Assembly (NCBI GenBank): GCA_963720545.1
Contig: OY970399.1
Span: forward strand, 1,088,001-1,152,000
DNA from: an uncultured Acidobacteriota bacterium
Lineage (GTDB): Bacteria > Acidobacteriota > Vicinamibacteria > Fen-336
Reading direction: 5' to 3'
Length of the DNA: 64,000 bases
Shown here one piece after another: positions 30,587 to 50,068 of this stretch. The notes below the pieces were generated by a model. The model ran no database searches and was not told where the DNA came from. It saw nothing but the letters and a program-made list of their open reading frames with translations. A program made the position numbers and the translations under genes. The stretch's first letter is position 1, and every line of letters starts with the position of its first letter.

Positions 30587-31209
30587 AAGGTGCGGGCTTC
30601 GGCAGCCGCGACGCGCCGGAAGCCGTCGTGCACCGGGGCTGCGAAGGCTTCATCGGCGAGCGCCGGGTCGAGGTCTGCGGCGACGATGCGCAGCTGCAGG
30701 TGGCCGCTGTCGGGCAGCACTGCGTCGACGCGTTCGGGAAAGGCGGGGCCCCAGTCGGCGCGGTAGGTTCGGACCCGTTCTCCGCCGATGCCGACGAGCA
30801 GGTCCATGACTTCGGCCGGGCTCAGTGCGACGCCGAACAATGCCTCGAGATTTGCTGGCGTGGCCTCGCCGTCGAAGAACGCGCGCTCGCCCGGAAAGAC
30901 GGCGACGAACCGGCCGGCGCTGGCCACGGCGATGAGGCGCGCGGAGCCGGGGCCGGGAACCTCGATGCGCAAGGCGTCGGGCCGGCGGAAGCCGACGAGC
31001 ACGGGAGTGCGGGCGCGCAGCTCCGGCCCGTCGAGGCGCAGCCGCAACTCGCCCGAGTAGGTCGCCGCCTGCTTGGCGCGGGCGATGGCGGCGGGGGTTC
31101 CGGGCCGAAACGCCTTGGCGCAGGCGGAGGCCGCGAGGACCGCGAGCACGGCGAGGACTGCGCCGCGCCAGCACGCGCGGCTGGTGCTACCGCTCGTTGG
31201 TGCCGGCAT
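30577..31209 (-). CDS. Putative lipoprotein, possibly LolB/LolA-fold
   Basis: AVLAVLAVLAASAC lipobox; FRRPDALRIEV strand motif; TPR-X-ispE position. Confidence 0.6.
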   Translation of the reverse strand: MPAPTSGSTSRACWRGAVLAVLAVLAASACAKAFRPGTPAAIARAKQAATYSGELRLRLDGPELRARTPVLVGFRRPDALRIEVPGPGSARLIAVASAGRFVAVFPGERAFFDGEATPANLEALFGVALSPAEVMDLLVGIGGERVRTYRADWGPAFPERVDAVLPDSGHLQLRIVAADLDPALADEAFAAPVHDGFRRVAAAEARTLWQ

Positions 31210-33133: not shown

Positions 33134-33176
33134 AAGTCGATTGTCTCACACGCCTTCGGGGCCGGCCGTATCGGCG

Positions 33177-33464
33177 TCAGGCGGCCATTTGGGTGGCCCG
33201 GTAGCTGTCGAGGATCCAGTCTTTTACGCGGCGCGCGTCGGCCGGGACGCCCTCGACCGAGCGCAGCAGGTCGAAGTAACGCCGCTCGGTTTCGCTGCCG
33301 AAGGCACGCGCGGGAAACGTAACGTAGACGCCGTCGTCGCCCCCGCGCCACAGGCTGAAGCCGACGAGTTTCATGCCGGCGAGCGGACCTTCGTCGAACA
33401 CGACTTCCGCTTCGCAGACGAGCTTTTCCGGGGCTCCGCCCCGGTTCACGAACTGGACTCTCAT
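33177..33464 (-). CDS. SpoVG-like nucleic acid-binding protein
   Basis: A.V.FD, G.YV.FP, Y.D and ILDSY pattern of SpoVG; GGAG upstream. Confidence 0.6.
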   Translation of the reverse strand: MRVQFVNRGGAPEKLVCEAEVVFDEGPLAGMKLVGFSLWRGGDDGVYVTFPARAFGSETERRYFDLLRSVEGVPADARRVKDWILDSYRATQMAA

Positions 33465-33627
33465 GGCACTGCTCCCTTCGAATGTTGGTAGTGCTGCTGC
33501 AAGCTGGCGGGAGAGTGCCGGCCCTATCGAGGAACACGCTAACCCGCGGCGGCGGCGCCGGAGGTCCGCTCGCCGCGGTCAATTTCTGGAGAAACGTCTG
33601 CGCGGACCCCTGCGGTACACTCGCGCC

Positions 33628-33801
33628 ATGGCGATTCACCCCGAGCTCCTCGAAATCCTGGCGTGTCCGGTGTGCAAGACTCCGGTGGAGGTGGTGCTCG
33701 GCGGAGCGGGATTGCGGTGCACGCGCTGCTCGCGGGTCTACCCGGTGCGCGACGACATCCCGATCATGCTCCCCGAGGAAGCCACCATCGAGAACGCTTG
33801 A
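33628..33801 (+). CDS. Trm112/YcaR-family protein
   Basis: MAIHPELLEILACPVCK...C..C..VYPVRDDIPIML. Confidence 0.93.
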   Translation: MAIHPELLEILACPVCKTPVEVVLGGAGLRCTRCSRVYPVRDDIPIMLPEEATIENA

Positions 33802-35138
33802 GCCTGGAGCGCCTGCAGCTCGCGGCGGTCGCGGCGATCGCGGCCAGCTGCACGCTGTCGATCTTCGCCGCGCAGGTGTTCCTGGTGGTGGCGCTTGCCG
33901 CCTTCGGCGCGCGCTGGGCGCTAGGCCAGACCGCGCCGCCGCGCCTCGCGGTGGACGGGCCGCTGCTGGCGTTCTCGGTGTGGACGCTGCTCTCGGCCTC
34001 CTTTTCGGCCGACCCCGTCGCCTCGCACGAGAGCGCCAAGAAGCTGGTGCTCTTCGGCCTCGTCTATGTCGCGGTGGACAGCCTGCGCACCAGCGAAGCG
34101 CGCGAACGGGTGGTGGACGCGCTGCTCCTCGGCGGCACCGTGCTCGCCGCCGGCGCGCTGCTGCAGCACTTCTTCCTTGGCTACAACACCATCGCGCGCC
34201 GGCCGACGAGCTTCCTCGGCCACTACATGACCGCCGCCGGCGTGCAGATGGCCACCCTGATCGTCGCCGCCGCGCGCCTCACGTTCGCGTCCCTGCCGGC
34301 GCTGCCGCGGCCGAGCCGCCGCGACCTCTCGGGGTTCGCGCTGCTGGTTGCGGCGCTCGCCGGGCTCACGTTCCTGAAGCGGCTGGGCATGTTCGCGGTC
34401 GAGGCGGAACGCGGCATCGTCGCGGTGGTGGCCGCGGCCGCCGCGTGGTGCGCGCTGTCGCGCAAGGAAGGCGTCGCGAACGGCAGCCGTAGCGCGTGGG
34501 CCTGGCTCGCTGCCGCGATCTCCTGCTTCGCCCTCGTCGTGTCGCTGACGCGCAACGCCTGGCTCGGCGCCATCGCCGGCATCGCCATCCTTATTATGTT
34601 GCGGGCGCCGAAGGCATTCTGGCTGCTGCCGGCAGGCGTCGCCGCACTCCTCATCCTGAGCCCGCGGCCGGTGCTCGACCGCATGACGCTGCGCGACGAC
34701 AGCTCGCGGGACCGTTACTACATGTGGCAGGCGGCTGTGGACATGATCCTCGACCGGCCGGTGTTCGGGCAGGGGCCGGGGATGATCCTGGCCCGCTATC
34801 CGCTCTACCGCTGGCGGGAAGCGCCGAACCCGGAGACGCCGCACCTGCACGACAACGTCCTGCAGATCGCCGCCGAACGCGGCGTGCCTGGCGCGATACT
34901 CTGGGTGTGGATCTTCGTCGGCATGCTGCACGCCGCCTGGCGCGAATGGCGGCGGCCGCCGGGGACCGCGCGCCCCTGGCTCGCGGCTGCTGCGCTCGCC
35001 GTGCTCTCGGGGCTGTTCGTCGCCGGGCTGTTCGAGTACAACTTCGGAGATTCGGAGCTGCTGATGCTGCTGCTGGTGGTCGCCGCCCTGCCGTTGTCCC
35101 TGCGCAGCGCGCGCGCCGCCGAGGCGCTCGCCGCATGA
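33798..35138 (+). CDS. O-antigen ligase family membrane protein
   Basis: Multi-TM; SLTRNAWLG, R..MW, PVFGQGPG, HLHDNVLQ..AERG; TTG overlaps the Trm112 stop. Confidence 0.88.
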   Translation: MSLERLQLAAVAAIAASCTLSIFAAQVFLVVALAAFGARWALGQTAPPRLAVDGPLLAFSVWTLLSASFSADPVASHESAKKLVLFGLVYVAVDSLRTSEARERVVDALLLGGTVLAAGALLQHFFLGYNTIARRPTSFLGHYMTAAGVQMATLIVAAARLTFASLPALPRPSRRDLSGFALLVAALAGLTFLKRLGMFAVEAERGIVAVVAAAAAWCALSRKEGVANGSRSAWAWLAAAISCFALVVSLTRNAWLGAIAGIAILIMLRAPKAFWLLPAGVAALLILSPRPVLDRMTLRDDSSRDRYYMWQAAVDMILDRPVFGQGPGMILARYPLYRWREAPNPETPHLHDNVLQIAAERGVPGAILWVWIFVGMLHAAWREWRRPPGTARPWLAAAALAVLSGLFVAGLFEYNFGDSELLMLLLVVAALPLSLRSARAAEALAA

Positions 35139-36133
35139 GCGCTGCCGCTGCCGCGGAAGAGGCGCGCCGCATCCTCGCGCGGCTCAAGGGCCGCCGCATC
35201 CTGGTCGTCGGCGACGTGATGCTCGACGAGTTCGTCTGGGGACGCGTGAGCCGCATTTCGCCGGAGGCACCGGTGCCGGTGGTCGAGGTGTCGCGCGAGA
35301 CGACGAGCGTCGGCGGCGCCGGCAACGTCGCCAACAACGTGCAGGCGCTCGGCGGCCAGGCACTGCTCGTCGGCTACGTCGGCGACGACCAGGCTGGCGA
35401 CGAGGTGCGGCAGTCGCTGGCGGCGAGCGGCGTGGTTTCGCGCCTGGTAACGAGCCCGCAACGCGCGACGACGCGCAAGACCCGCATCATTGCTCACCAG
35501 CAGCAGCTGGTGCGCGCCGACCGCGACCCGGTCGGCGCCCTTCCCGCCGGGGTCGAGCAGAAGCTCGCCGCCGCCTGCCTCGCCGAGCTTGGCTCGTGCC
35601 GCGCCGTCATCGTTTCCGACTACGCGAAGGGGCTGGTGTCGCGGGCGCTGATGCGCGGCATCGTCGCGGCCGCGCGGCGCCGCGGCATTCCGGTGCTGGT
35701 CGACCCGAAAGTGCGGCCCGCGGCCGACTACCTGGGCGCCACCATCGTCACCCCGAACCAGGCGGAGGCCGAGCAGACCGCGGGCCTCCGCATCAGCGAC
35801 GACGCTTCGCTCGCCGAGGCCGGCAAGCGACTGCTCGCCCGGTGGCGTGCGCAAGCGGTACTGGTGACGCGCGGTGAGCGCGGCATGAGCCTGTTCGCGG
35901 CGCACAAGAGGCCGCACCATGTCGCGACGGCGGCGCGCGAGGTGTTCGACGTGACCGGCGCCGGCGACACCGTGATCGCGGCGCTCGGCCTCGCCGTGGG
36001 CGCCGGTGTCGCGCTGCGCAGCGCCGCGGCCCTTGCCAATCTCGCGGCCGGCGTCGTGGTGTCGAAGGTCGGCACGGCGACCGCGAGCCCCGCCGAGGTC
36101 GAGGCGGCAGCGAGGCTCGCGGCACGGCGATGA
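35135..36133 (+). CDS. rfaE1: D-glycero-beta-D-manno-heptose-7-phosphate kinase (HldE/RfaE kinase domain only)
   Basis: VVGDVMLDE, RISPEAPVPV, GGAGNVA, SDYAKG, VDPK, TPN, DVTGAGDTV. Confidence 0.92.
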   Translation: MSAAAAAEEARRILARLKGRRILVVGDVMLDEFVWGRVSRISPEAPVPVVEVSRETTSVGGAGNVANNVQALGGQALLVGYVGDDQAGDEVRQSLAASGVVSRLVTSPQRATTRKTRIIAHQQQLVRADRDPVGALPAGVEQKLAAACLAELGSCRAVIVSDYAKGLVSRALMRGIVAAARRRGIPVLVDPKVRPAADYLGATIVTPNQAEAEQTAGLRISDDASLAEAGKRLLARWRAQAVLVTRGERGMSLFAAHKRPHHVATAAREVFDVTGAGDTVIAALGLAVGAGVALRSAAALANLAAGVVVSKVGTATASPAEVEAAARLAARR

Positions 36134-37263
36134 GCCTGCGGGTCGCGATCGTCGGCGCCGGCCCCGCGGGTTCGCTGTGCGCGCACGATCTTGCCCGCGG
36201 CGGCGCGGAAGTCGTCGTGTTCGACCCGAGCCACCCGCGCGAGAAGCCCTGCGGCGGCGGGCTCACCGGGCGCGCCCTCGACCTGCTGCCCGAGGCGCCG
36301 GCCGCCGATCCCGCGCCGCTGCGCGCAATCGCCGAGTGCCGCTTCGAATCGGGATCGGGCGAATCGGTGACCGTGCGGCTCCGGCGTCCGATGGCGGTGG
36401 CGTCGCGCAGCCTGCTCGACTCGTGGCTGCTGCGCCAGGCGAAGAATGCCGGCGCACGCCACGTGAGCGAACGGGTCGTGGACGTCGCCTCGGGCGGCTG
36501 GCTCGCGACGAGCGAAGGCCGCCGCCAGCGGTTCGACGTCATCGTCGGCGCGGACGGCGCCGGCAGCCTGGTGCGGCGCACCTTCCTGTCGCCCACGCCC
36601 AAGGAGCGGCTCACCATGGCCGCGGGCTGGTTCGCACCGGGCGACAGCGAACTGGTGGTGCGCTTCGTCCCCGAGTACTCCGGGTACATCTGGCTCTTTC
36701 CCCGCAGCGGCCATGTCGGCGTCGGCGTCGGCGCGCCGCTCGGCGCGGTGCCCACCCGCAGCCTCATCGAGCGCCTCGACAGCGAAGTGCGCCGTTCGTT
36801 CCCGTCGCTCGCCCAGGCCGGACAGCCGCGCTACGCGCACACCATCCCGGCGCCGTCGAGCGATCCGCGCTCCATCACCGAGGTGGCCGGCGACTGCTGG
36901 GCGCTCGTCGGCGACGCCGCAGGGTTCACGGACCCGATCACCGGCGAAGGCATCCACTTCGCGCTCCGCTCCGGGCAGCTCCTCGCCGGCACGCTGCTGG
37001 CCGGCGAAACGACGCTCGGCTACGCGCAACGCGCCCTCGACGACTTCGGCCGCGAGCTGGTGAAGGCGGCGGCGATCCGGCCGCGCTTCTACAGCGCGGC
37101 CTTCGTGCGCCGCGTCATCCGCTATGCTGCGCGCAGCGCTGCCATCCGCGAGGTGCTGGCAGAGCTGGTGCACGGTGAGCAGGGCTATGTCGGCCTGAAG
37201 CGCCGGCTGTTGCGGATAGCGCCGCGCTTCGTCTGGGAGACGCTCACTCACTCGCAGGCCTGA
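36130..37263 (+). CDS. Geranylgeranyl reductase-family FAD-dependent oxidoreductase
   Basis: VGAGPAG, KPCGGG, GADG, Y.WLFP, VGDAAG..DPITGEGI. Confidence 0.88.
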   Translation: MSLRVAIVGAGPAGSLCAHDLARGGAEVVVFDPSHPREKPCGGGLTGRALDLLPEAPAADPAPLRAIAECRFESGSGESVTVRLRRPMAVASRSLLDSWLLRQAKNAGARHVSERVVDVASGGWLATSEGRRQRFDVIVGADGAGSLVRRTFLSPTPKERLTMAAGWFAPGDSELVVRFVPEYSGYIWLFPRSGHVGVGVGAPLGAVPTRSLIERLDSEVRRSFPSLAQAGQPRYAHTIPAPSSDPRSITEVAGDCWALVGDAAGFTDPITGEGIHFALRSGQLLAGTLLAGETTLGYAQRALDDFGRELVKAAAIRPRFYSAAFVRRVIRYAARSAAIREVLAELVHGEQGYVGLKRRLLRIAPRFVWETLTHSQA

Positions 37264-37281
37264 CCGGCCCAAAGGAGGCTC

Positions 37282-37794
37282 ATGTCGGGAACGTCGATCG
37301 TGCACAAGAGCTCGCGTTCGGGCCTGGCACTCTGTGCGGCACTCGCCTTTCTCCCGCCGCTACTGACGCGCCTCGTCATTGGCCAGGCGTTCTTCCTGAC
37401 CGGACGCGGCAAGATCCAGAACATCGACCAGATCGGGCAGTTCTTCGCGAGCCTCAGCATTCCCCTGCCCGAGGCGAACGCTTTCTTCATCTCGCGCCTC
37501 GAGTACTTCGGCGGCATGCTCCTCGTCATCGGCCTGCTCACGCGGCTGGTGGCGGCGCTGCTCAGCTGCACCATGATCGTCGCCATGATGACGGCCGACA
37601 AGCAAGACTTCCTCGGCGCCTTGCACATGACGAGCGACAAGGGGCTCACCGACGTGGTGCCGTTCGTCTACCTGCTGTTCCTCATCTGGCTCGTGATCAA
37701 GGGCCCCGGCGCCGTCAGCGTGGACGCGTTGCTGAAACGCTGGCTGTTCCGCGGCGAACACGCGCCCGGGCGAGCAGCAAGCCCGCACCAGTGA
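37282..37794 (+). CDS. DoxX-family membrane protein
   Basis: R..IG..F...G.GK, E..GG.LL.IGLLTR, GPGAVSVD; AAGGAGG Shine-Dalgarno. Confidence 0.9.
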   Translation: MSGTSIVHKSSRSGLALCAALAFLPPLLTRLVIGQAFFLTGRGKIQNIDQIGQFFASLSIPLPEANAFFISRLEYFGGMLLVIGLLTRLVAALLSCTMIVAMMTADKQDFLGALHMTSDKGLTDVVPFVYLLFLIWLVIKGPGAVSVDALLKRWLFRGEHAPGRAASPHQ

Positions 37795-40153
37795 GTGCCG
37801 CGGCGGCGGCAGCGGCTGCCGTGAGGGTGGTCCATGAGACCGCTGTCGCAACCGGCCGCGTGCCTTCGCCGGTGAGGACGAACGCCGCCCAGTAGTGCGG
37901 GTGCGCGAGGCTCGTGCCGCTCGCCAGGAAGCGCAGCTTGGCGCGCTGCAGCGCCTGGTCGCGCGCGGCGCCGCGCTGCAAGTGGTAGTAGAACGACGCC
38001 ATGAAGTCGGCCGTCGGCTGGTCGGCCACACGCCACAGCGTCGTCACCGTGCTCGCCGCGCCGGCGGCGAGAAACGCGCGGCTGAAGCTCTGCACGCCTT
38101 CGCCGCGCAGGTAGGCTCCGCGCTCGGTGTCGCAGGCGCTCAGCACGGCTAGCTGCACATCGCCAAGCGGCAGCGAGTAGGCCTCCCGCAGGTAGAGGTA
38201 GTCGGCTGCGCCGCCCGCGACTTGCGGCGAGAACAGAATGCGCGACTGTTCGAGGGCGCTGGTGTCGGCGAACGCATGCGCCGCGATGTGCAGCAGCGGC
38301 GGCCGGCGCCGCTCTTCCTCGAGGTGCCGCTTGCGGTCGTCTGCGCCGAGGTGCGGGAGCACGCGTCCCGACAATTGCGCGGCGACGCGCGCGATCTCGT
38401 CGCGGGTGCCGGGAAGCACCGGATGCGGCGGCGGCGCCTGCGGATCGCCAAAAGCTTCCAGCACCGTTTGCCACGGCCAGCGCCGGCGCGGCGCGAGTGC
38501 AGCGCGGCGCTCGGTCGCGGAGGTGCCGGGCGCCAGCAAGGCCGCGGCGGTTGGCAGGTAACTGACGGGCGCGCGTTCGACCAACAGCCGGTCGGCCACG
38601 GGCAGCACCTCGAAGGGCACGAGTGCGACGGCGCCGTCGGGAACCACGATCACGTGGCGGATGCCGTCGAACCAGTCGCGCGGCGGCAGCAGCTGAGCGA
38701 GAGCCGCAGCATCGGCGCGCCACTCGCGGGCATCGCCGGCAGCGAGCGAGTCGATGAGCCGCTTCGCGGCTGCAACGTCGATCGTGAGCGGCAGGACCTG
38801 CACGCGTAGCCGCGTCACGGCCACCACCGCCGAACCGGCGGCGGAGTTCCAGTAGTCGAGAAGCAGCACTCCGTCGCCTAGGCGCGCCTGCACGTCCGCG
38901 AGCCGCACCCGCGCCGCCAGACCCAGCCGGTCGCGCCAGTCGCGCGAATGCGCCTGTTCCAGCACCGCGAACACCTCGCCCGCGTCTCCCGCGGGAAGGC
39001 GCGCCGCGAGCAGCGCGTCGTAGACGTCGCGCTTGTCGTTGAGGAAGTCCGGCCGCAGCGACGGCACCCGGAGCTCGCCACGGATCTTCTCGATGGTTTC
39101 GACCGCTTCACGAAACTGCGCCGCCGCGCCGTCACGCGTGCCTTCGGTACGGCCGAGGCCGTACAGCCCTTTCCACTCCTCTTCCGGTGTCTTCAGGCTG
39201 CGCGCCAGCGCGACGGCGGCCGTGAAATCGGTGCGCGCGCCCGGCGCATCGCCGCTGCGCAACAGCGCTTCGCCGCGGTAGAGGCGCGCGTGCAGCATTT
39301 CGCGCTGGTTGCCGGCCGTGGTCGCGGTCGCCAGCGCGGCGGCAAATGCCGCGGTGCCGAGGTCGGCGCGGCCGAGGTCCTGCGCGAGGACGATGCCGCG
39401 GTTCTTTATGGCGCCGAGCTCGCCGTCCACGTTGCGGTCGCGACGAAACAGTTGCAGCGCGCGGTCGTAGGTGGCGAGCGCTTTCTGCGGGTCGCCGAGG
39501 CGGCGATAGAGAGCCCCCTCGTTCACCAGCAGCTGCGCGGCTTCGCTCGGCGCGAGCGTGTCGGCATCCCTCGCCAGCTCTTCATAGACCTCGAGCGCTT
39601 CCTGGTACCGGCCGAGCCGCTGGTAGAGGCTCGCCTGGTTCGCGGCCAGGATGCGCCGGCGACGCGCGACCCACGTTGATCCGGCGCCGGGCGGCGACGC
39701 TTTCGTGAGCAGAAGCGCCTGCTGGTAGCGCGCGGCGGCATCGGTGTAGCGCCCGGTGAAGAAGTCGACATTGGCGCGGTTGCCCACCTCTTCGGCCAGG
39801 CCTTCGGTATCGCCGGCGCGCCGCGACGCGTCGATCGCGGCGTCGAGGCTCTGTTGCGCCAGCGCGTAGTCGCCGGCGTAGATCGAGGCGAGCCCGGCGC
39901 GGTTCCTGGCCTTGCCCACGGCGGCCGGGTCGCCGAGCGCCTCGTAGAGCGCCGCCGCTTCCTCGGCATGGCGGCGCGCCGCATTGTACTGGCCGAGATC
40001 AGCCTCACCGCCGGCGGCCTCCAGCAAGGCGTCGGCCCTCTGGCGATCGGCGGCCCGGCCGGCAGGCGCCGCGGGCTCGCCGATCGCCGCCGGAACCAGG
40101 CTAAAAAGCAGGACCAGGGCGGCCAGACTCGGGTCCAACAGGCCGCGGCGCAC
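37715..40153 (-). CDS. Exported TPR + CHAT (caspase-like) protease with C-terminal membrane anchor
   Basis: N-terminal signal, TPRs, VPDG, LHIAAHA (His), VLSACDT (Cys), TLWRVAD, HPHYWAAFVLTG, hydrophobic tail followed by RARVRR. Confidence 0.92.
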   Translation of the reverse strand: MRRGLLDPSLAALVLLFSLVPAAIGEPAAPAGRAADRQRADALLEAAGGEADLGQYNAARRHAEEAAALYEALGDPAAVGKARNRAGLASIYAGDYALAQQSLDAAIDASRRAGDTEGLAEEVGNRANVDFFTGRYTDAAARYQQALLLTKASPPGAGSTWVARRRRILAANQASLYQRLGRYQEALEVYEELARDADTLAPSEAAQLLVNEGALYRRLGDPQKALATYDRALQLFRRDRNVDGELGAIKNRGIVLAQDLGRADLGTAAFAAALATATTAGNQREMLHARLYRGEALLRSGDAPGARTDFTAAVALARSLKTPEEEWKGLYGLGRTEGTRDGAAAQFREAVETIEKIRGELRVPSLRPDFLNDKRDVYDALLAARLPAGDAGEVFAVLEQAHSRDWRDRLGLAARVRLADVQARLGDGVLLLDYWNSAAGSAVVAVTRLRVQVLPLTIDVAAAKRLIDSLAAGDAREWRADAAALAQLLPPRDWFDGIRHVIVVPDGAVALVPFEVLPVADRLLVERAPVSYLPTAAALLAPGTSATERRAALAPRRRWPWQTVLEAFGDPQAPPPHPVLPGTRDEIARVAAQLSGRVLPHLGADDRKRHLEEERRRPPLLHIAAHAFADTSALEQSRILFSPQVAGGAADYLYLREAYSLPLGDVQLAVLSACDTERGAYLRGEGVQSFSRAFLAAGAASTVTTLWRVADQPTADFMASFYYHLQRGAARDQALQRAKLRFLASGTSLAHPHYWAAFVLTGEGTRPVATAVSWTTLTAAAAAAAALTGAGLLLARARVRRGTASVSATRPR

Positions 40154-40189
40154 GATACGGGATGGTACATCCGGGCTCGCCCGGATTTG

Positions 40190-40216
40190 TGTTCCGCAGC
40201 CGCCCCGCGCCGGGTC
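40190..40216 (+). promoter_or_regulatory. Candidate ECF promoter, copy 1 (autoregulatory)
   Basis: TGTTCCGCA-N13-GGGTC; identical boxes and spacing at 42718-42744. Confidence 0.6.
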
Positions 40217-40268
40217 TTATTTTCCGGGCAAGGACCCCCAATCGAATGACCTCTATACAATCGAAGCC

Positions 40269-40862
40269 ATGGCGCTGCGCGACCTCACCGACGAGCAACT
40301 CGTGGCCGAGTGCCGTCTCGAGGGCTCTGCCCAACGGGAAGCCGCGAAGGACGAGCTGTTCTCGCGCCACTACGCGACCGTCGCGCGCTGGTGCCTGCGC
40401 ATGACGAGCGATCGCGAAGCCGCCGCCGACCTCGCCCAGGACGTGTTCCTGAAGGCGCACCGCTATCTCGATTCGTTCCGTGGCCAGTCGCGCTTCTCGA
40501 CGTGGCTCTACACCATCGCACGCAACGAAACCGCCGATCGCTTCAAGTCGATGCCGGCACCGGTCGAGAGCGAAGAGATCCTCGCCGACCTCGCGGACGA
40601 CGCGCCCGGCCCCGAGCAGCAGGCCGATATCGCCAGCCGCGGGCGACGGGTGCGCGAGTTCCTGGCGAGCACACTCGACGAGACCGAGCGCGCGGTGTTC
40701 GCGCTGCACTTCGGCGAGGACATGCCGCTGGCGGCCGTGACGCGGACGCTGGGCCTCGACAACCGCAGCGGCGCCAAGGCCTACCTCGTCAGCGCCCGGC
40801 GCAAGCTCGCCCGCGTGCTCGACCGTTCCCAGGTCGCTCTTGGGGCAAGGGAGGACGCGTGA
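40269..40862 (+). CDS. ECF RNA polymerase sigma factor
   Basis: LTDEQLV, AADLAQDVFLKA, FRGQSRFSTWLYTIARN, region 4 helix-turn-helix; ATG 7 nt after TACAAT. Confidence 0.93.
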   Translation: MALRDLTDEQLVAECRLEGSAQREAAKDELFSRHYATVARWCLRMTSDREAAADLAQDVFLKAHRYLDSFRGQSRFSTWLYTIARNETADRFKSMPAPVESEEILADLADDAPGPEQQADIASRGRRVREFLASTLDETERAVFALHFGEDMPLAAVTRTLGLDNRSGAKAYLVSARRKLARVLDRSQVALGAREDA

Positions 40863-41584
40863 CCAACGAGCGCATAGCCGAGGGTCGGCTGGTGATGGGC
40901 GCGGCTCTGGGAACGACGCCCGATTGCATCGCGACCGCCCGCTTCGAGTCGCCGCTCGGTGCCGCGGATGCCGCGCACCTCGCGACCTGCGCGCATTGCC
41001 AGGCGGAGCTGGCGCTCTTCCGCAGCTTCCACGACGCTTCGCCGCTCGCGGCGGGCGAAGCTGCCGACGTCGAGTGGGTCACCGGCCGCCTGCGCCAGTC
41101 GGCGGCGCCGAACCGGGTCGCCGCTTTCCCCCCGGCGCGTACCACGCGGACAGGCGCCAGCCGCTTCCTGCCGGGCCTCGCCGCCGCTGCGGTGCTGCTG
41201 CTCGGCATCGGCTTTTTCGCGAGCCGGCGAGAACCGGAGCTGCGGCCGCTCGACGGCGGGTCCGTGGCTTATCGCTCGCTGCGCCTCGATCTCCTGTCGC
41301 CAAAAGGCGACCTCGACCGAGCGCCCGGCTCGCTGCAGTGGCACGCGGTTCCTGATGCGGCGCGCTACGACATCGAGGTCCTCGGCGTAGACCGGACGCC
41401 GCTCTGGCGCGGAGTGTCCGAGCAGGCGCAGGTGGCCTTGCCCGAGTCTCTCGTCGCCCAACTGTTGCCCGGACGAACCGTGCTGTGGCGTGTCGTCGCT
41501 TACGACGCGTCCGGCCGCACCCTGGCGGAATCGAACATGGAGCCGTTCCGCGTTGCGATGCGGCCGGCTGTCGGTAAGGATTGA
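40859..41584 (+). CDS. Zinc-binding transmembrane anti-sigma factor
   Basis: HLATCAHC (HxxxCxxC), one TM helix, extracytoplasmic FN3-like domain; GTGA overlap with sigma stop. Confidence 0.85.
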   Translation: MTNERIAEGRLVMGAALGTTPDCIATARFESPLGAADAAHLATCAHCQAELALFRSFHDASPLAAGEAADVEWVTGRLRQSAAPNRVAAFPPARTTRTGASRFLPGLAAAAVLLLGIGFFASRREPELRPLDGGSVAYRSLRLDLLSPKGDLDRAPGSLQWHAVPDAARYDIEVLGVDRTPLWRGVSEQAQVALPESLVAQLLPGRTVLWRVVAYDASGRTLAESNMEPFRVAMRPAVGKD

Positions 41585-41588
41585 CGCC

Positions 41589-42695
41589 ATGATCCGGTCC
41601 ATCGCCCGCGCTCTTTTGGCCTCTTTCTTCGCAGTGGCTGGCGCCCTGCCGGCCGCGGCGCAGGCGCCGATAGAGCTGCGAGTCGAAGACGAGGTCGTGC
41701 CGCAGGGCGGCATCGTGCAGATGAAAGTGGGGGTCACGGAATCGAAGCCGATCTCGACCGGCCGCGGCCGCTTCCGCTCGTCGGCGCTACCGTTCCTTGC
41801 CGGCCTCGTGGTGCTGAGCCCCGCCAACGACACCTACGGTGCGGCGGTGCTCGATGGTACCAACCTGAGCGTCTCCGCGGTCTCGACCACATTCGCCTTC
41901 GGCACCGATACCGATTACCCGATCCTGGCCGCGGCGCTGCGGGTTCCCGAGACAATGGCCATCGGGACGGTGGTGCCGTTCGAGATGGAGCCCGGCTCGC
42001 TCGTGTTCCGCGATCCTTCCGGCGCCGTGTATCCGACGACCTTCGAGAACGGCGCCTTCACGGTCACCCGGCGCGCGCTCTCGATCGACGACGTGATCCC
42101 CGGCAGCGCCGACCTCCCCGCCGGCGCCACGGTCACCATCCTCGGCCGCGGCTTCCTGCCCTCGACGCGCATCCGCTTCAACGAAGTCGAGCTGGCCGAG
42201 ACTCGCTACATCAGCGCGCGCCGCATCGACGTGGTGCTGGGCGCGCCCGCGCACATGCACGGCATGCGCATCCGAGCCGAGAACGACGACAGCCCGCGGC
42301 TCGAGTACTTCTCGTACCAGCGAACGACGGTCCTTGGCGTGACGCAGACGCCTGGCTTGCAGAACGTCATCCCGCTGTTCGCGCACCAGCCGGTGCAGGA
42401 CGCGACCGTCGTGGTGGCGAAGCCGACCACCGCGACCACCGGGCTCGCCATCGAGAACCTGCAAGGCGCCGCGGTGCGCGTGACGATCGACCTGCTGCGG
42501 CCCTCGGGCGAGATCATCGCGACCACCCGCCTGCGTATCCCGCCGAGCCGCTACATCCTGCGCAACGTCACCGAGCTCTTTTCGGCCGCCGTGCCGCGAA
42601 ACGCGCGGCTGCGGGTGCGGGCCCCATCTCCCGTCGAGGTGATGGGCATCCGTGTGACCGCGGCCGGCGCCGTCGAACCCATCCTCGCCAACTGA
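41589..42695 (+). CDS. Secreted multi-beta-sandwich protein (IPT/TIG-like central domain)
   Basis: Signal peptide ending AAA-Q; IDDVIPGS...AGATVTILGRGF. Confidence 0.7.
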   Translation: MIRSIARALLASFFAVAGALPAAAQAPIELRVEDEVVPQGGIVQMKVGVTESKPISTGRGRFRSSALPFLAGLVVLSPANDTYGAAVLDGTNLSVSAVSTTFAFGTDTDYPILAAALRVPETMAIGTVVPFEMEPGSLVFRDPSGAVYPTTFENGAFTVTRRALSIDDVIPGSADLPAGATVTILGRGFLPSTRIRFNEVELAETRYISARRIDVVLGAPAHMHGMRIRAENDDSPRLEYFSYQRTTVLGVTQTPGLQNVIPLFAHQPVQDATVVVAKPTTATTGLAIENLQGAAVRVTIDLLRPSGEIIATTRLRIPPSRYILRNVTELFSAAVPRNARLRVRAPSPVEVMGIRVTAAGAVEPILAN

Positions 42696-42717
42696 TCCTC
42701 GCCTGCTGAAAGAAACC

Positions 42718-42744
42718 TGTTCCGCATCGCGCGGGCGCGGGGTC
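42718..42744 (+). promoter_or_regulatory. Candidate ECF promoter, copy 2
   Basis: TGTTCCGCA-N13-GGGTC ending 53 nt upstream of the lipoprotein ATG. Confidence 0.6.
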
Positions 42745-42797
42745 ACACCCTTGGAACCACGGACCATATCGTCCGCACTGCTCTAAGGAGATTCACA

Positions 42798-43307
42798 ATG
42801 TTCACCCCTCACAAGCTGTTCGCACTGCTGGCGGTCGCCGGCTTCGTTTCGTTCAGCGCTGCCTGCGGCAGCGAGAACTCGTCCTCGCCGGTCGCCCCGA
42901 GCAACGTCGCCGCGGGCGATGATGCGAGCCTCGCGGTCGACGCCTCGCACGGCAGCGACGACAGCAACGTCGGCAGCTCCGACGACAACGCCAGCGGCGG
43001 CGGCGGCAACGCGATCCGCGTCCGCTGCGAGCGCCGCGGCAACCAGCGCTCGAAGATCTCGGTCGACGGCCGCAACCTCCGCTCCGGCACCTACACCGCC
43101 CGCGTCACCTCCGGCGCCAACACCGCCAGCGCGGCGCCGCAGCACACCATCGGCGACGAAGTCGAGTTCGACTTCGACAGCAACACCGGCGAGGGCGGCA
43201 CCCGCATCCCCCGCACCTTCATCCAGGGCAACAGCGTCACCGGCCAGATCCTCAACGCCGCCGGCAACGTGGTCCGCAACCAGACCGCCCGCTGCGAGGT
43301 TCGCTAG
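42798..43307 (+). CDS. Putative lipoprotein of unknown function
   Basis: SAAC lipobox, Ser/Asp/Gly linker, beta domain bracketed by two Cys; TAAGGAG Shine-Dalgarno; strong C-ending codon bias. Confidence 0.8.
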   Translation: MFTPHKLFALLAVAGFVSFSAACGSENSSSPVAPSNVAAGDDASLAVDASHGSDDSNVGSSDDNASGGGGNAIRVRCERRGNQRSKISVDGRNLRSGTYTARVTSGANTASAAPQHTIGDEVEFDFDSNTGEGGTRIPRTFIQGNSVTGQILNAAGNVVRNQTARCEVR

Positions 43308-43333
43308 CCTTCATCGGCGAGTGGGCTGACGTC

Positions 43334-43373
43334 ATCGGCGGATGGGCTCCTTGCGAACCCATCCGCCGATTTT
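43334..43373 (+). terminator. Intrinsic terminator-like hairpin after the lipoprotein gene
   Basis: ATCGGCGGATGGG-11 nt-CCCATCCGCCGAT followed by TTT. Confidence 0.75.
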
Positions 43374-43430
43374 CCGTTTGTCGGAGGCTCGTTGCCGCTC
43401 CCTCGGCGGCTCCGTTCCCTAGGAAGCTCG

Positions 43431-43565
43431 TCAACTGCGTCCGGACGCAGTCGAACTGAGTCCTGACGACTCAAGTGCGACTCGTTCCAGAACGGTGTCA
43501 CGTTGCGCAGCACAGACTCAACCGTGGCATCTCAGAAACGGTGGACTGCGTCCGGACGCAGTTGA
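43431..43565. repeat. 135-bp element with perfect 22-bp terminal inverted repeats (MITE/REPIN-like)
   Basis: TCAACTGCGTCCGGACGCAGTC at 43431-52 and its exact reverse complement at 43544-65. Confidence 0.8.
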
Positions 43566-43662
43566 AACTCAGTCGTCTTACAGCACGTTGACTGCTAGAC
43601 GACTGTGCCCGCGGGGCGGCGCGGTAAGTGTTGGGTGCGGCAAACGCAGCAACGGATGCAGG

Positions 43663-43706
43663 GAGATCCTTCGCGCCCGGGAACGGACCGAAGCGCTCAG
43701 GAAAAC
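43663..43706. repeat. REP-like element
   Basis: GAGATCCTTCGC...GCTCAGGAAAAC; ends of its reverse complement resemble 15611-15655. Confidence 0.6.
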
Positions 43707-43735
43707 GGAACGAACCAGGAACAACGAACAACGAC

Positions 43736-43776
43736 AATCGACGGATTGGACTGCAAGGGCGGCCAATCCGTCGATT
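43736..43776 (-). terminator. Hairpin at the purH stop codon
   Basis: AATCGACGGATTGG-13 nt-CCAATCCGTCGATT, perfect 14-bp stem. Confidence 0.7.
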
Positions 43777-45346
43777 AGTGCTTAAAGTGCCTCGCGCCGG
43801 TGAAGACCATGGCCAGCTTGCGTTCGTCGGCGGCGGCGATGACTTCGGGGTCGCGGACCGAGCCGCCCGGCTGGATGATCGCGGTGGCGCCGGCCTTGGC
43901 GATCTCGTCGATGCCGTCGCGGAACGGAAAGAAGGCGTCCGACGCAGCGACGGTGCCGGCGAGCGGCAGCTGCGCCTTGGCGGCGGCGAAGCGGGCGGCG
44001 TCGACACGGCTCATCTGCCCGGCACCGACGCCCACCGTCTGCTGCGCGTTGGCGAACACGATGGCGTTGCTCTTCACGTGCTTCACGACCGTCCAAGAGA
44101 GGATCAGCGCCTTCCATTCTTCCTCGCTCGGCGCGCGCTTCGTCACCACCTCGGCCTTCTCGCGCTCGAACGGCTGCAGGTCCCAGTCCTGCAGCAGCAG
44201 CCCGCCCATCACCCGGCGCATGTCGAAGCCTGCGACCTTGTGGATCGCCGTTGTGTCCATGTCCATGACGCGCAGGTTCTGCTTCGCGGCCAGGATCTGC
44301 TTGGCCTCGCCCTCGAAGCCGGGCGCGATGACGCACTCGACGAACACCGCCACAACCTTCTTCGCGGTGGCCGCATCCACCTTGCGGTTGAACGCGAGGA
44401 TGCCGCCGAACGCCGAGATCGGGTCGGCGGCCCAGGCGCGGTCGAAGGCTTCGCCGAGGCCCGAGGCGATGCCGGTGCCGCACGGGTTCGTGTGCTTGAT
44501 GATGACGCAGGCCGGGTCGTTGAGGTCGACGGCGAGCCGCCAGGCCGCGTCGAGGTCGAGGATGTTGTTGAACGACAGCTCCTTGCCCTGCAGCTTGCGC
44601 GCCGCGGCAACCGAGTACAGCGTCGAGCCGAGGTCGCTGTAGAACGCCGCCTTCTGGTGCGGGTTCTCGCCGTAGCGCAGGTCCTGGATCTTCTCGAGCG
44701 TGAGGCTCAGCCGGTAGGGAAAGAAGCTCTCGGCCGCGGCCGGGATGTATCCGCCGTTGCCGGCCTCGACCTGCGCGAAGTAGCCGGCGATGGCCGCTTC
44801 GTAGCGCGCCGTGTGGCGAAACGCCTTCTGCGCGAAGTAGAGGCGCGTGGCGGCGTCGATGCCGCCGGCGCGATCGAGCTGTTCCAGCAGCAGGTTGTAG
44901 TCGGCCGGATCGACGATCACCGCGACGCTCGCGAAGTTCTTGGCGGCAGCGCGCACCATGGTCGGCCCGCCGATGTCGATGTTCTCGACCGCCTCCAGGA
45001 ACGGCACGCCCTTCGCCACCTTGTCCTCGAACGGATAGAGGTTCACCACCACCACGTCGAGCGGCACGATCCCGTGCTCGTCGAGCGCCTGCATGTGGCG
45101 CGGGTCGTCGCGCCGCGCCAGCAGGCCGCCGTGGATGCGCGGGTGCAGGGTCTTGACGCGGCCGTCGAGGATCTCGGGAAACCCGGTCACTTCCGAGACG
45201 CCGAGCGTCTTGACCGAAGCCTTGGCAAGCGCGTCCTTGGTGCCGCCGGTCGAAAGGATTTCATAGCCGCGCGATGCCAGGCCCTTGGCGAGTTCGACGA
45301 CGCCGTCCTTCTTGTAGACCGATATCAAGGCGCGCTTGGCGGGCAT
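43775..45346 (-). CDS. purH: Bifunctional AICAR transformylase/IMP cyclohydrolase
   Basis: RALISV, STGGT, GRVKTLHP, IDIGGP, LRYGENPHQ, KHTNPCG, SDAFFPF, RHFKH. Confidence 0.99.
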   Translation of the reverse strand: MPAKRALISVYKKDGVVELAKGLASRGYEILSTGGTKDALAKASVKTLGVSEVTGFPEILDGRVKTLHPRIHGGLLARRDDPRHMQALDEHGIVPLDVVVVNLYPFEDKVAKGVPFLEAVENIDIGGPTMVRAAAKNFASVAVIVDPADYNLLLEQLDRAGGIDAATRLYFAQKAFRHTARYEAAIAGYFAQVEAGNGGYIPAAAESFFPYRLSLTLEKIQDLRYGENPHQKAAFYSDLGSTLYSVAAARKLQGKELSFNNILDLDAAWRLAVDLNDPACVIIKHTNPCGTGIASGLGEAFDRAWAADPISAFGGILAFNRKVDAATAKKVVAVFVECVIAPGFEGEAKQILAAKQNLRVMDMDTTAIHKVAGFDMRRVMGGLLLQDWDLQPFEREKAEVVTKRAPSEEEWKALILSWTVVKHVKSNAIVFANAQQTVGVGAGQMSRVDAARFAAAKAQLPLAGTVAASDAFFPFRDGIDEIAKAGATAIIQPGGSVRDPEVIAAADERKLAMVFTGARHFKH

Positions 45347-45356
45347 CCTGTCCTCA

Positions 45357-45384
45357 GTGAAAGGTGAAACGTGAAAGGCGAAAG
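45357..45384. repeat. Heptamer tandem repeat x4 upstream of purH
   Basis: GTGAAAG GTGAAAC GTGAAAG GCGAAAG. Confidence 0.85.
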
Positions 45385-45397
45385 GGGATGACGGGGT

Positions 45398-46198
45398 TCA
45401 GCGATTGGGCGGTGCGGTCGGCGGCGGCTCCGGCTGCGAGGGTACACCAGCCGGCAGCACGCGTGCGACAGTGCCCATGCGCGTGAGGTCGCCGTGCGCC
45501 TCGCGCCAGGCGACGAGCCAGGTGGCTGCGATCGCGGTGATCGCACGCGAGTAGGAAAGCTGCGCGACGCCAAAGGCGTGCGAGTGCGCGTCGAGGGTGC
45601 GGTGGTCGACCAGGCGGCCCGCGCGAACGAACTCGGTGCCGAGCACCGGCGACTGCACGACGCTGCGCGCCAGCACCTCGTTCCAGTACTCGTACAACTC
45701 GGCGCGCGTCCCGCCCAGCGCCTTGCGGCTGTCGAGGATCACCGGGATGTTGGGCATCTGCACGCGCAGGAACGCGTAGTACTCCGGGATCACGCCCTGC
45801 GCCTGCGGCCTCGCGCCGGCGAGCGCGGCATCCGACAGGTCGGCGCCGATGCGGTACAGGCGGCCGAGCGCAACGAGCCCCGGATCCACCTGGCCCGCGC
45901 GCAGCAGCGCGACCGCGCGGTCCATCTCGACGTCCACGAGCGAAAGCGTCGCCGGTGAAAGGCGGCCCGCCGCCCGGTCCTGGGCCAGGGCGTTCGTGAG
46001 TTCGAGCGGCAGTCGCCCGGCGCCCTCGAGGATCGCCTGCTGCCGCTCCGCCAGCAATTGCGCCAGCGAGCGCGGCACCAGCCGGCGCGCGTCGCGGTTG
46101 ATGCCCGGCGCCACGTCCGCGGGCCAGGCGTAGCCGGGCGGCGCGAGCACGGCCAGGACCAGGACGGCCCACAGGGCGAGGGCCGCGCCCCGTTTCAT
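45398..46198 (-). CDS. Secreted helical protein, possibly phospholipase C/P1 nuclease-like fold
   Basis: Signal peptide with Trp at the predicted mature N-terminus; YSRAI....W..AW C-terminal helix; ATG overlaps the upstream stop. Confidence 0.55.
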   Translation of the reverse strand: MKRGAALALWAVLVLAVLAPPGYAWPADVAPGINRDARRLVPRSLAQLLAERQQAILEGAGRLPLELTNALAQDRAAGRLSPATLSLVDVEMDRAVALLRAGQVDPGLVALGRLYRIGADLSDAALAGARPQAQGVIPEYYAFLRVQMPNIPVILDSRKALGGTRAELYEYWNEVLARSVVQSPVLGTEFVRAGRLVDHRTLDAHSHAFGVAQLSYSRAITAIAATWLVAWREAHGDLTRMGTVARVLPAGVPSQPEPPPTAPPNR

Positions 46199-46776
46199 TT
46201 CACCGCCCGCGCCTTGAGCGTGACCTTGCCACCCTTGGTGTCGACCCGGTAGTCGACCGCCTTCACTTCGCTGTTGCTGCGCAGCTTGGCAGTTTGCTTC
46301 GCCACTTGCTGTTCGAACGCCTGGTAGGTCAGCGTCCCTGCCTCGCCCGCACGGCCGCGCTCCTCGACGAAGCGCTGGTACAGGGTGCGCACCGCCCCGG
46401 TGTCCTTGGTGGAGCCGATGCGCACCTCGCGCAGCTGCGCCGAAGGCGGCGCCTCGGGCTGCTGCTGCAGCACGATCGCGGGCGACGAGCCGGCCGGGCC
46501 GCGCACCGGAACTCCCGGCAGCCGGCCCTCCTCGAGGGCGCGCAGCCGCTTGTTCCACATCTCGTTGAAGACGTTGTAGCGGGCGACGAGCCCCTGGTAG
46601 CGGAAGCGGTCGGTGGCGTTCCTGATCTCTTCGTCGAGATAGCGCCTGATGAGCCGCTCGAGGCGCGCGCGCACTTCCATCGGCGGGCGCCGCTCGACGC
46701 CGCCGAAGAACTTCTCCCACTCCACCTGGAGGTTGCGGATGCCGAGTTCGATGACCGGAAGGTCGTCGCGAATCAC
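46195..46776 (-). CDS. MXAN_5187 C-terminal domain-like protein
   Basis: WEKFFGG.ERRPP, RFRY..L.ARY, W...LR..EEG, V.YRV..KGGKV.LKA. Confidence 0.7.
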   Translation of the reverse strand: MIRDDLPVIELGIRNLQVEWEKFFGGVERRPPMEVRARLERLIRRYLDEEIRNATDRFRYQGLVARYNVFNEMWNKRLRALEEGRLPGVPVRGPAGSSPAIVLQQQPEAPPSAQLREVRIGSTKDTGAVRTLYQRFVEERGRAGEAGTLTYQAFEQQVAKQTAKLRSNSEVKAVDYRVDTKGGKVTLKARAVK

Positions 46777-47183
46777 GCCTGGTCGCCCTTGACGAACAAG
46801 TATACGAGCGGCAGCCACAGCTCGCGCGCATACGGAACCTTCTTGCCGGCGACCAGCACGTCGGTGCCGCGATTGTTGCCGACCAGCGACACGAGGTCGC
46901 GCAGCGCGTTGGCTTCGCTGGTGGCGAACTCGGCGCGATGGCGGGTGCGCGTGCCGTCCCGGAACGTGCGATACGCGGAGGCGCTGCGCGCCAGCTGCAG
47001 AGCCCGGCTCGCATCGGCACCGCTGAAGTCGTCGAACACGACGCCCATGCGGAAGGGTCGCGGCGCGCTGCCGGGATAGAGAAGCTCGCGCAGGTCGTCG
47101 TCGAGGCGCGCGGGGTCTTCTTCCCCGGCGGCGAGGATCGGCGGCAGGCGGTCGGCGAAGTCGGGGGCGCGGTCGTAGGACAA
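46773..47183 (-). CDS. Hypothetical protein (alternative start ATG 47207)
   Basis: Coupled to the downstream gene (GTGA overlap); protein-like C-terminus GKKVPYARELWLPL; TTG 8 nt after TATACT. Confidence 0.6.
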   Translation of the reverse strand: MSYDRAPDFADRLPPILAAGEEDPARLDDDLRELLYPGSAPRPFRMGVVFDDFSGADASRALQLARSASAYRTFRDGTRTRHRAEFATSEANALRDLVSLVGNNRGTDVLVAGKKVPYARELWLPLVYLFVKGDQA

Positions 47184-47191
47184 ATCGACCG

Positions 47192-47199
47192 AGTATAGT
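47192..47199. promoter_or_regulatory. Putative bidirectional promoter for selA and the divergent operon
   Basis: AGTATAGT gives TATAGT (+) 6 nt before the selA ATG and TATACT (-) 8 nt before TTG 47183. Confidence 0.6.
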
Positions 47200-47205
47200 C
47201 CAGGC

Positions 47206-48626
47206 ATGAGCAGCTCCCGCGGTGATCTGAGCGACCTTCGCCGCTCGCTGCCGTCGGTGGACGAGCTGCTGCGCAGCCCCGCCGGCGCGGCCGCGGCGGC
47301 GCGCTTCGGCCGCGGGCCCCTGCGCGCGGCAACTCGCGTGGTTCTGGCGGAAATGCGCGCCGCGCTGAGCGGCGCGGGCCGGGCCGGCGCGCCGCAGCCC
47401 CAGGCCGACAGCGCCGGGCTGGTCGCGGCTGTTGTGTCGCGCCTCACAGGAGCCACGGCGCCGTCGCTCGAACGCGTCATCAATGCCACGGGCGTCGTGG
47501 TGCACACCAACCTCGGCCGCGCTCCCCTCTCGGCCGCGGCCATCGCCGCGGTCAACACTGTCGCGAGCGGCTACTCGAACCTCGAGTACGACGCCACCAC
47601 CGGCGGGCGCGGCAACCGCGAGGCGCACATCGAGTCGGCCTTGCGCCGCCTGCTCGCAGCCGAGGCGGCGGCGGTCGTCAACAACTGCGCCGCGGCCGTC
47701 CTGCTGGCGCTCAACACCTTCGCCGAAGGCCGCGCGGTGCTGGTGAGCCGCGGCGAACTGGTGGAGATCGGCGGCTCGTTCCGGATTCCCGACATCCTGC
47801 GCAAGAGCGGCGCGACGCTGCGCGAGGTCGGCACCACCAACAAGACGCGGCTCGCCGACTACGCCGACGCGCTCGGCGGCGGACCCGGCGAGAGCGGAGT
47901 GGGACTCATCCTGCGTGTCCATCCCAGCAATTTCCGCATCGTCGGCTTCACCGAGAGCCCCGCGCTCGCGGACCTGGCGGCGCTCGCCGCGCGCGCCGGC
48001 ATACCGCTCGTCGAGGATCTCGGCAGCGGCCTGCTCGATGCGCCCGCCGGGCTCGAGTCGGAGCCGAGCGTGCGCGAGAGCCTCGCCGCCGGCGCCGATC
48101 TCGTGACCTTCAGCGGCGACAAGCTCTTCGGCGGACCGCAGGCGGGCCTGTTCGCCGGCCGCGCCGCGCGCGTCGACGCGATGCGCACCAATCCCCTGTA
48201 TCGGGCGCTGCGCGTGGACAAGATGACGATTGCCGCGCTGCACGCCACCCTGCTGGCGCACGAAGCCGGACGCGCTGCCGTGCAGGTACCGGTGCTGCGG
48301 ATGCTCGTGGCGCAGCCCGACGAGCTGCAAGCGCGCGCCGAACGCATCGCCGACCAGGTGCGCGCGGCAGGGGTCTCGGCCGATACCGTGCCCGGTCATT
48401 CCGCGGTCGGCGGAGGCGCAGCGCCGTCGCTGGCCCTCGCGACCACCCTGGTGCGCATTGCGGTTTCCGGGCAGTCGGCCGACGAGCTGCACGCGCGGCT
48501 GCGCGCCTCGCGCCCGCGGGTCATCGCACGCATCGAGGACGGCGCGCTGCTCATGGACCCGCGCACCGTAGACACGGCCGAGGAGTACGCCCTGATCCGC
48601 GCGCTGCGCGCCCTGGCTGCCGTCGA

Positions 48627-48630
<4 letters not shown>
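47206..48630 (+). CDS. selA: L-seryl-tRNA(Sec) selenium transferase
   Basis: LPSVD, VINATGVVVHTNLGRAP, VSRGELVEIGGSFRIP, EVGTTN, VHPSNF, FSGDKLFGGPQAG. Confidence 0.97.

Positions 48631-50068
<1,438 letters not shown>

Follow-up and report, generated by a model that had tools for sequence, protein, structure and literature searches.

Among described systems that pair a caspase-like protease with a sigma factor of the extracytoplasmic function (ECF) type, the closest to the locus reported here is DdvA of Myxococcus xanthus. DdvA is described as a transmembrane (TM) zinc anti-sigma factor with a fused periplasmic TPR-CHAT region, for which a role like that of a site-1 protease was proposed (PMC11506125), and the portion covered of a survey of ECF groups mentions CHAT only under ECF54 (PMC7826278). 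We analyzed a locus in which such parts are encoded by separate genes, within a 64,000-nucleotide stretch (the window) from an uncultured Acidobacteriota bacterium (Vicinamibacteria, Fen-336; GenBank assembly GCA_963720545.1, contig OY970399.1, positions 1,088,001 to 1,152,000). Four core genes encode an exported TPR-CHAT protein, an ECF sigma factor, a single-pass zinc anti-sigma factor, and a secreted protein with a cohesin-like domain. We consider it probable that these genes form a trans-envelope switch, in which the tethered CHAT protein would serve as the site-1 enzyme that cuts the anti-sigma factor after Arg139 (R139), RseP would act at site 2, and surface genes would be the output. 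The original prediction, made from the sequence of the window, had proposed a CRISPR-independent arrangement of this type. In keeping with independence from CRISPR, neither a Cas1 nor a RAMP gene was found in the genome, but the precedent of DdvA had been missed, and the system is not new in kind.

All five open reading frames (ORFs) of the original prediction are real and lie at the positions that it gave, with the CHAT gene on the strand opposite to the other four (Table 1). The predicted pairing was also confirmed: the ATG of the sigma gene (40269) is divergent from the CHAT start across a gap of 115 bp, and the gene for the coupled HxxxCxxC zinc anti-sigma factor begins at a GTG (40859) that overlaps the sigma stop codon.

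Table 1. Features of the CHAT/ECF sigma locus, in window coordinates
Feature	Position	Strand	Basis or remarks
Exported TPR-CHAT protease-like protein, 812 aa	37715..40153	-	Pfam, hydropathy, 120-orthologue alignment, AF2; core gene
Codon of catalytic Cys674 (motif LSACDT)	38132..38134	-	Invariant 120/120; aligns to Csx29 LGACET
Codon of catalytic His626 (motif HIAAHA)	38276..38278	-	Invariant 120/120; aligns to Csx29 catalytic His region, E 0.14-0.16
Predicted ECF promoter (TGTTCC ... GTCTT) of sigma operon	40184..40220	+	30.4 bits, genome rank 1
Predicted housekeeping -10 hexamer TACAAT	40256..40261	+	7 nt before sigma ATG
ECF sigma factor, 197 aa	40269..40862	+	Pfam/TIGR profiles, locus co-occurrence; core gene
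Single-pass zinc anti-sigma factor, 241 aa	40859..41584	+	CHCC zinc site, TM 103-121, linker with R139, small domain; core gene
Codon of R139, candidate P1 residue	41273..41275	+	Invariant 46/46
Secreted three-domain all-beta protein, 368 aa	41589..42695	+	AF2, Foldseek, locus co-occurrence; core gene
Second predicted ECF promoter, before lipoprotein	42712..42748	+	19.2 bits, genome rank 4
Lipoprotein-like ORF, 169 aa	42798..43307	+	No Pfam match over cut-off; not core

Linkage of the four genes was assessed at 89 loci chosen on CHAT alone, comprising 9 loci from genomes of the class plus 80 metagenome loci, the best of 114. At the 34 loci with flanks of at least 2.5 kb each, the sigma factor was present in 34/34, the anti-sigma factor in 34/34, and the secreted protein in 33/34, with the single exception carrying a partial copy; the association of CHAT, ECF, and zinc anti-sigma genes, on which the original prediction depended, is strongly conserved across relatives. 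All 27 loci at which none of the three partners was scored have less than 1 kb on at least one side, and one of them has a partial secreted protein. Layouts are mainly divergent (as here) or convergent and once co-directional, and some carry a duplicated anti-sigma gene. Pairwise distances of the four core proteins correlate across 35 loci (rho, 0.58 to 0.86; permutation maxima, about 0.3), which shows co-inheritance and not co-evolution because kin share history. Orthologues of the CHAT protein at an E value of ≤1e-60 occur in 9/400 genomes of the class and in 0/58 other genomes of the family.

A reciprocal test, starting from the anti-sigma factor, compared 60 of the best-scoring loci with a profile match over the ectodomain with 20 loci that match the zinc domain and TM segment only. 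A CHAT gene lay within about 7 kb at 27/60 ectodomain-bearing loci (22 of the 42 loci of ≥13 kb) versus 1/20 controls, and 24 of these 27 CHAT genes were within 400 bp of the anti-sigma gene. The full-length proteins among them (n = 21) have an N-terminal hydrophobic segment in 18 cases and a C-terminal one in 14. Chance placement of a CHAT gene beside a sigma operon might be considered, given that CHAT genes are common (a match in 47/78 genomes of the order), but it is refuted by 34/34 linkage across rearranged layouts and by the scarcity of CHAT among control anti-sigma loci, and we give it virtually no credence.

Several variants of the arrangement were observed. The lone control locus with CHAT encodes a fused zinc anti-sigma and CHAT protein, a DdvA-type ORF from the same phylum (L177, 6812-10438; genome G713). 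At L029, L031, and L057, two anti-sigma copies flank the cohesin-like gene and the sigma gene, and L057 also has a partial second sigma gene. Locus L009 (2670-7758) holds a second, inverted copy of the entire cassette, one CHAT copy being frameshifted, possibly an assembly artifact. A short stand-alone CHAT domain with a C-terminal TM segment, and with no TPR solenoid in the same ORF, adjoins the anti-sigma gene at L127 and L129. In a “Candidatus Viridilinea” genome (L001, 4852-9238), a zinc anti-sigma-like ORF is directly followed by a CHAT gene, suggesting that similar modules exist outside the phylum.

The CHAT protein consists of an N-terminal hydrophobic segment, a TPR solenoid, the CHAT domain, and a C-terminal TM segment with a basic tail. 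Pfam CHAT (PF12770, clan CD) matched residues 485 to 763 (E value, 5e-55; 187 bits against a cut-off of 24), along with TPRs, and hydropathy placed the hydrophobic stretches at residues 6 to 24 and 777 to 795, with RARVRR after the second. In the AlphaFold 2 (AF2) model (mean predicted local distance difference test [pLDDT], 91.3), the solenoid is helical and the CHAT domain alpha/beta, and residues 774 to 806 form a C-terminal helix. We aligned the best 120 of 501 homologues at an E value of ≤1e-40, which share 51 to 58% identity after a near-identical copy. H626, C674, E586, W707, and D711 are invariant in 120/120, and the His/Cys dyad first recognized in the motifs HIAAHA and LSACDT is thereby kept. 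The signal-peptide-like segment and the C-terminal TM segment with its basic tail proved to be conserved as well: an N-terminal hydrophobic segment occurs in 110/120 orthologues, several of the 10 misses having visibly truncated starts, and a C-terminal one followed by Lys/Arg, counted by alignment column, is present in 120/120. Based on hydropathy, the protein is predicted to be membrane tethered and to face the periplasm, since a cleaved signal peptide and an uncleaved anchor would both place the TPR and CHAT regions outside the cytoplasm. A PDB sequence search with the CHAT protein matched Csx29 chains weakly (E values, 0.14 to 0.16) and did not retrieve DdvA. The genome has another CHAT region far from this one (G000 C1, about 1983300-1984200), which seems to be split across reading frames, and no sigma or anti-sigma gene of the cassette family was found near it.

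The anti-sigma factor has an HxxxCxxC motif plus the upstream Cys23, followed by a TM segment at residues 103 to 121 (hydropathy). In an alignment of 46 sequences dereplicated at 85%, a cytoplasmic CHCC zinc domain is followed by one TM segment in 46/46, and C23, H40, C44, C47, and R139 are all invariant. The arginine lies 15 to 24 residues past the membrane in these sequences, with the candidate cut point here 18 residues above it. Apart from R139, the linker (residues 122 to 146) is variable, with P126 conserved at 83% and every other position at most at 61%. Profile zf-HC2 matched 8/46 family members, and the best PDB sequence match of the family profile was the N-terminal domain of DdvA (8rlz), a weak match (E value, 0.19) in which the four ligands aligned. 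The FN3-like label originally given to the ectodomain was not borne out by a Pfam match here; 5/46 orthologues weakly match an Ig-like family (best E value, 0.0095). Of 401 genomes sampled from the phylum, 97 had a match to the anti-sigma profile, at a loose threshold that also catches plain zinc anti-sigma factors, and a contig scan of genomes with the anti-sigma factor alone gave two weak matches only.

Several observations weigh against cleavage by CHAT as the trigger. The locus counts above overstate independence because the loci are related, some being near-duplicates. An adjacent CHAT gene is lacking at 33/60 ectodomain-bearing anti-sigma loci, and the linker Arg is nonetheless kept in the aligned column in 27 of these 33. 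Among 15 genomes with a CHAT-less anti-sigma locus, 12 encode CHAT elsewhere; it was undetected in the other three (G600, G680, and G740; 91 to 92% complete, two of one genus), which keep an Arg-bearing anti-sigma factor. In addition, autoproteolysis of DdvA itself is unproven and was proposed only (PMC11506125). The fit of the CHAT pocket to arginine is also partial. In Arg-specific clan CD proteases, acidic S1 residues are expected on helix 1, L4, and L5. An acidic S1 residue is found on helix 1 in MALT1 and in the metacaspase TbMCA2 (PMC4357240), and the invariant E586 begins helix 1 in the AF2 model, whereas the invariant D711 has no assigned counterpart. Profile alignment to 8 metacaspases puts E586 on the metacaspase Asp, although not significantly (probability, 0.07 to 0.25). 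The residue two before Cys674 (the L4 position) is Ser, compared with Asp in metacaspases. Separase D2151, which corresponds to Csx29 K670 (PMC9729208), falls on Ala715 by a weak Csx29 alignment, a position that is Ala in 102/120 orthologues. Furthermore, the residue after the catalytic His is Ala627 in 120/120, where clan CD keeps a Gly described as conserved (PMC4357240). Arg specificity of the CHAT protein is plausible but not established from these alignments.

Such observations could be accommodated if CHAT bound the anti-sigma ectodomain as a sensor or scaffold while another periplasmic protease cut first, with R139 having a docking or structural role. Retention of the Arg in the three genomes with undetected CHAT and the imperfect pocket, with His-Ala rather than His-Gly, would agree with this explanation, as would the DdvA active site, which was seen incomplete and resting (PMC11506125). 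However, an invariant His/Cys pair in 120 orthologues at 51 to 58% identity is unexpected for a dead enzyme, R139 keeps almost the same spacing from the membrane while the rest of the linker varies, and the three CHAT-less genomes are incomplete. On balance, we find this explanation unlikely and favor CHAT as the site-1 enzyme. Many of the CHAT-less loci belong to one clade, in which the sigma and anti-sigma genes sit beside housekeeping genes. This clade (L115, L116, L120-L122, L124-L126, L130-L133, L136, and L137) has a sigma factor and an Arg-linker anti-sigma factor with no adjacent CHAT, at a site fixed beside PSP1, DNA polymerase III delta, and uvrA-like genes (Pfam on some loci).

The fourth core protein was modeled with high confidence (AF2 pLDDT, 93.5) as three beta domains: one cohesin-like, one IPT/TIG-like, and a third beta domain. 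Foldseek assigned domain 1 to the cohesin fold (type I cohesins; target TM-score up to 0.80, root mean square deviation about 3 Å), and domain 2 has a weak Pfam TIG match. The protein has its own invariant arginine, R245, and in certain loci additional adhesin-like repeats are fused to it. RseB has a shielding role in the DegS/RseA/RseB/RseP system, and by analogy the cohesin-like protein could play a similar part here.

Tight linkage of the cohesin-like protein raises the question of whether CHAT, as an active protease, might have a main substrate other than the anti-sigma factor, namely, itself, the cohesin-like protein, or secreted outputs, and thus mature or reset the system without triggering it. 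In the close family, the cohesin-like protein is linked as tightly as the anti-sigma factor (33/34 loci; distance correlation, 0.77 versus 0.73), and this possibility also draws on the invariant R245 and on the many predicted targets that are secreted. In the wider family, however, the anti-sigma gene has CHAT beside it at 27/60 loci and the cohesin-like gene beside it at 11/60. Outputs differ between loci while CHAT is conserved, and in the fused form, DdvA, CHAT and anti-sigma factor are joined in one chain. We regard a different main substrate as quite improbable and retain the anti-sigma factor as the likely target.

The sigma factor matched sigma70 region 2 (E value, 1e-17) and TIGR02937 (E value, 8e-25), and with regions 2 and 4 only and about 200 aa, it is of the ECF type. 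A bipartite motif, TGTTCC-N17/18-GTC(T/C), occurs within 130 nt upstream in 27/35 sigma genes; the pattern was picked by eye and then made into a matrix trained without this window. Scored with this matrix, the site at 40184 is the top of the 4.09-Mb genome, whereas the maxima of two shuffled genomes were 21.7 and 23.0 bits. Support for the site at 42712 comes from its position 86 bp before the ATG of the lipoprotein-like ORF and not from its score alone, because shuffles give 3 sites of ≥18 bits per genome. Two more genome sites (21.8 and 19.9 bits) score in the range given by shuffles and were left out of the regulon. In 849 kb of locus sequence, we found 99 motif sites of ≥15 bits versus 6 to 13 in five shuffles; 45 precede sigma genes (training sites included), 54 lie elsewhere, and none of the 99 was assigned to a CHAT start. 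Genes behind the 54 sites elsewhere (40 proteins scanned) include those for GT28/GT4 glycosyltransferases, a heparinase-like protein, secreted proteins of the InlB-B-repeat and beta-propeller types, and a response regulator. These motif matches point to operons for glycosyltransferases and to secreted surface proteins as the predicted targets at other places. The sigma gene also has a TA(T/C)A(A/C)T hexamer 4 to 10 nt before the start in 31/36 cases, 23 of them at exactly 7 nt, compared with 1/67, 0/64, and 0/59 for the other core genes. This widely kept placement, as seen here in TACAAT 7 nt before the ATG, suggests leaderless basal transcription of the sigma gene.

The lipoprotein-like ORF had been counted as a member of the cassette. 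For CHAT, sigma, anti-sigma, and the secreted protein, membership as core genes stood, but phmmer found no homologue of the lipoprotein in any of the other 106 loci, and it was rejected as a core member. The search for relatives returned Atlas leads only (0.87 to 0.88). This gene is likely a local, variable output of the system.

Output bears on whether the module, like DdvA/DdvS, serves as an anti-phage sentinel with a defense function, an explanation that is compatible with the mechanism favored here. DdvS controls an island of CBASS (a system for antiphage signaling that is based on cyclic oligonucleotides) and CRISPR (PMC11506125), and changes in surface glycans could mask phage receptors. 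On the other hand, the genome without a detected Cas1 or RAMP gene is 94.8% complete, and PADLOC matched 0/5 cassette proteins. Among neighbors, of which 120 of 361 were called, it matched 5/120, each a generic kinase, helicase, hydrolase, or methyltransferase-type domain at one locus. A defense output thus appears very improbable, and surface remodeling is the output that we prefer.

From the co-occurrence of the four genes, and from the conservation of R139, of the zinc site, and of the dyad and anchors of CHAT, we infer a sequence of location, activation, and cleavage, with a part for the cohesin-like protein. Motifs predict that a leaderless housekeeping promoter would supply basal amounts of the sigma factor, anti-sigma factor, and cohesin-like protein and that CHAT would not be under the control of the sigma factor. 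The TPR solenoid would then sense a periplasmic signal, perhaps with the cohesin-like protein as a gate, and CHAT would become active. Cleavage after R139, 18 residues above the membrane, would shed the small anti-sigma ectodomain. By analogy to DdvA, which is cut by RseP when it lacks its ectodomain (PMC11506125), an RseP-type protease would cut the remaining TM segment and free the sigma factor; an RseP-like M50 gene is present in the genome. The sigma factor is predicted to fire TGTTCC/GTC promoters, amplify its own operon, and express surface genes, here the lipoprotein. More broadly, and tentatively, at a little under even chances, such loci may represent widespread CRISPR-free envelope receptors, in which a separate anchored caspase-fold site-1 enzyme, gated by a signal, cuts a small zinc anti-sigma factor after a single Arg, a cohesin-like protein acts as ligand, adaptor, or shield, and surface glycans and adhesins are remodeled.

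The GC content of the cassette is in line with that of its flanks. The original prediction placed the cassette as a self-contained unit between doxX and purH, which is nearly right, except that doxX, like the cassette, sits in a site that is empty in 9/29 relatives from the family. In these, purH directly adjoins genes that we take to encode a geranylgeranyl-reductase-like protein (6/29) or an rfaE-like protein (3 more). Because the flanking genes meet purH directly in these relatives, doxX and the cassette both look inserted into an otherwise empty site. No doxX gene was found beside purH in any of the 29 relatives. The 3' ends of the CHAT and doxX genes, on opposite strands, overlap by 80 bp (37715-37794). 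On the other side, the intergenic stretch 43308-43775 contains palindromic repeats resembling repetitive extragenic palindromic elements, with a 14-mer core that occurs 32 times on the + strand of the genome, and portions of it also match numerous sites elsewhere in the genome. These repeats were rejected as cassette boundary elements, being genome-wide. No Rfam family reached threshold in 30000-50000.

We did not find the split CHAT/anti-sigma/ECF form described in the literature, in a search that left subscription journals mostly outside and did not cover the supplements of the DdvA paper. The DdvA authors considered a periplasmic CHAT as site-1 protease to be testable only once its signal is known (PMC11506125). 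Because the split form separates enzyme from substrate, the site-1 step becomes directly testable, and the locus supplies R139, a C674 control, and a reporter promoter. If the proposed switch is real, the many exported TPR-CHAT proteins would gain a function, caspase-fold enzymes would join the known site-1 proteases, and CHAT-sigma signaling would prove to be used outside immunity.

Comparison with known systems places the cassette nearest to DdvA. Like ECF54 of Actinobacteria (PMC7826278; PMC8999054), it joins an ECF sigma factor to a conserved TPR-CHAT neighbor, and proteolytic control was proposed there too, but ECF54 has no anti-sigma factor, a different promoter (GTATCAG / CTCC), and belongs to another phylum (PMC7826278). 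As in type III-E Craspase (Csx29/Csx30/CASP-sigma; PMC10028731, PMC9729208), a TPR-CHAT protein would cut an inhibitor and free an ECF-like sigma factor, a step shown by experiment there and proposed here. Craspase is cytoplasmic, is activated by RNA via Cas7-11, and cuts after Met or Leu, and Csx30 is not a membrane zinc anti-sigma factor; here, in contrast, there are export signals, and the genome yielded no match to RAMP or Cas1. With DegS/RseA/RseB/RseP, the cassette would share site-1 and then site-2 cleavage of a single-pass anti-sigma factor, although the enzyme put forward for site 1 is a cysteine protease of clan CD whose gene lies in the cassette and not a PDZ serine protease. Shared with DdvA/DdvS (PMC11506125; PMC6061681) are the ECF sigma factor, the single-pass CHCC zinc anti-sigma factor, the TPR-CHAT region with a His/Cys dyad (predicted to be periplasmic here), the proposed CHAT cut in the juxtamembrane linker followed by RseP, and an autoregulated promoter, predicted here. 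In contrast to DdvA (about 990 aa), the anti-sigma factor has 241 aa and ends in a small domain, and TPR-CHAT is encoded by a separate gene on the opposite strand, as a protein that carries an export signal and a C-terminal anchor of its own. There is a fourth member, the cohesin-like protein; the promoter motif is TGTTCC-N17/18-GTC instead of GTAA-n16-CGT (PMC6061681), and the predicted targets, from neighbors and this genome, are surface genes rather than CBASS/CRISPR. We conclude that the cassette is a split, two-protein counterpart of DdvA, one that would function in the manner of DdvA/DdvS without being a DdvA itself.

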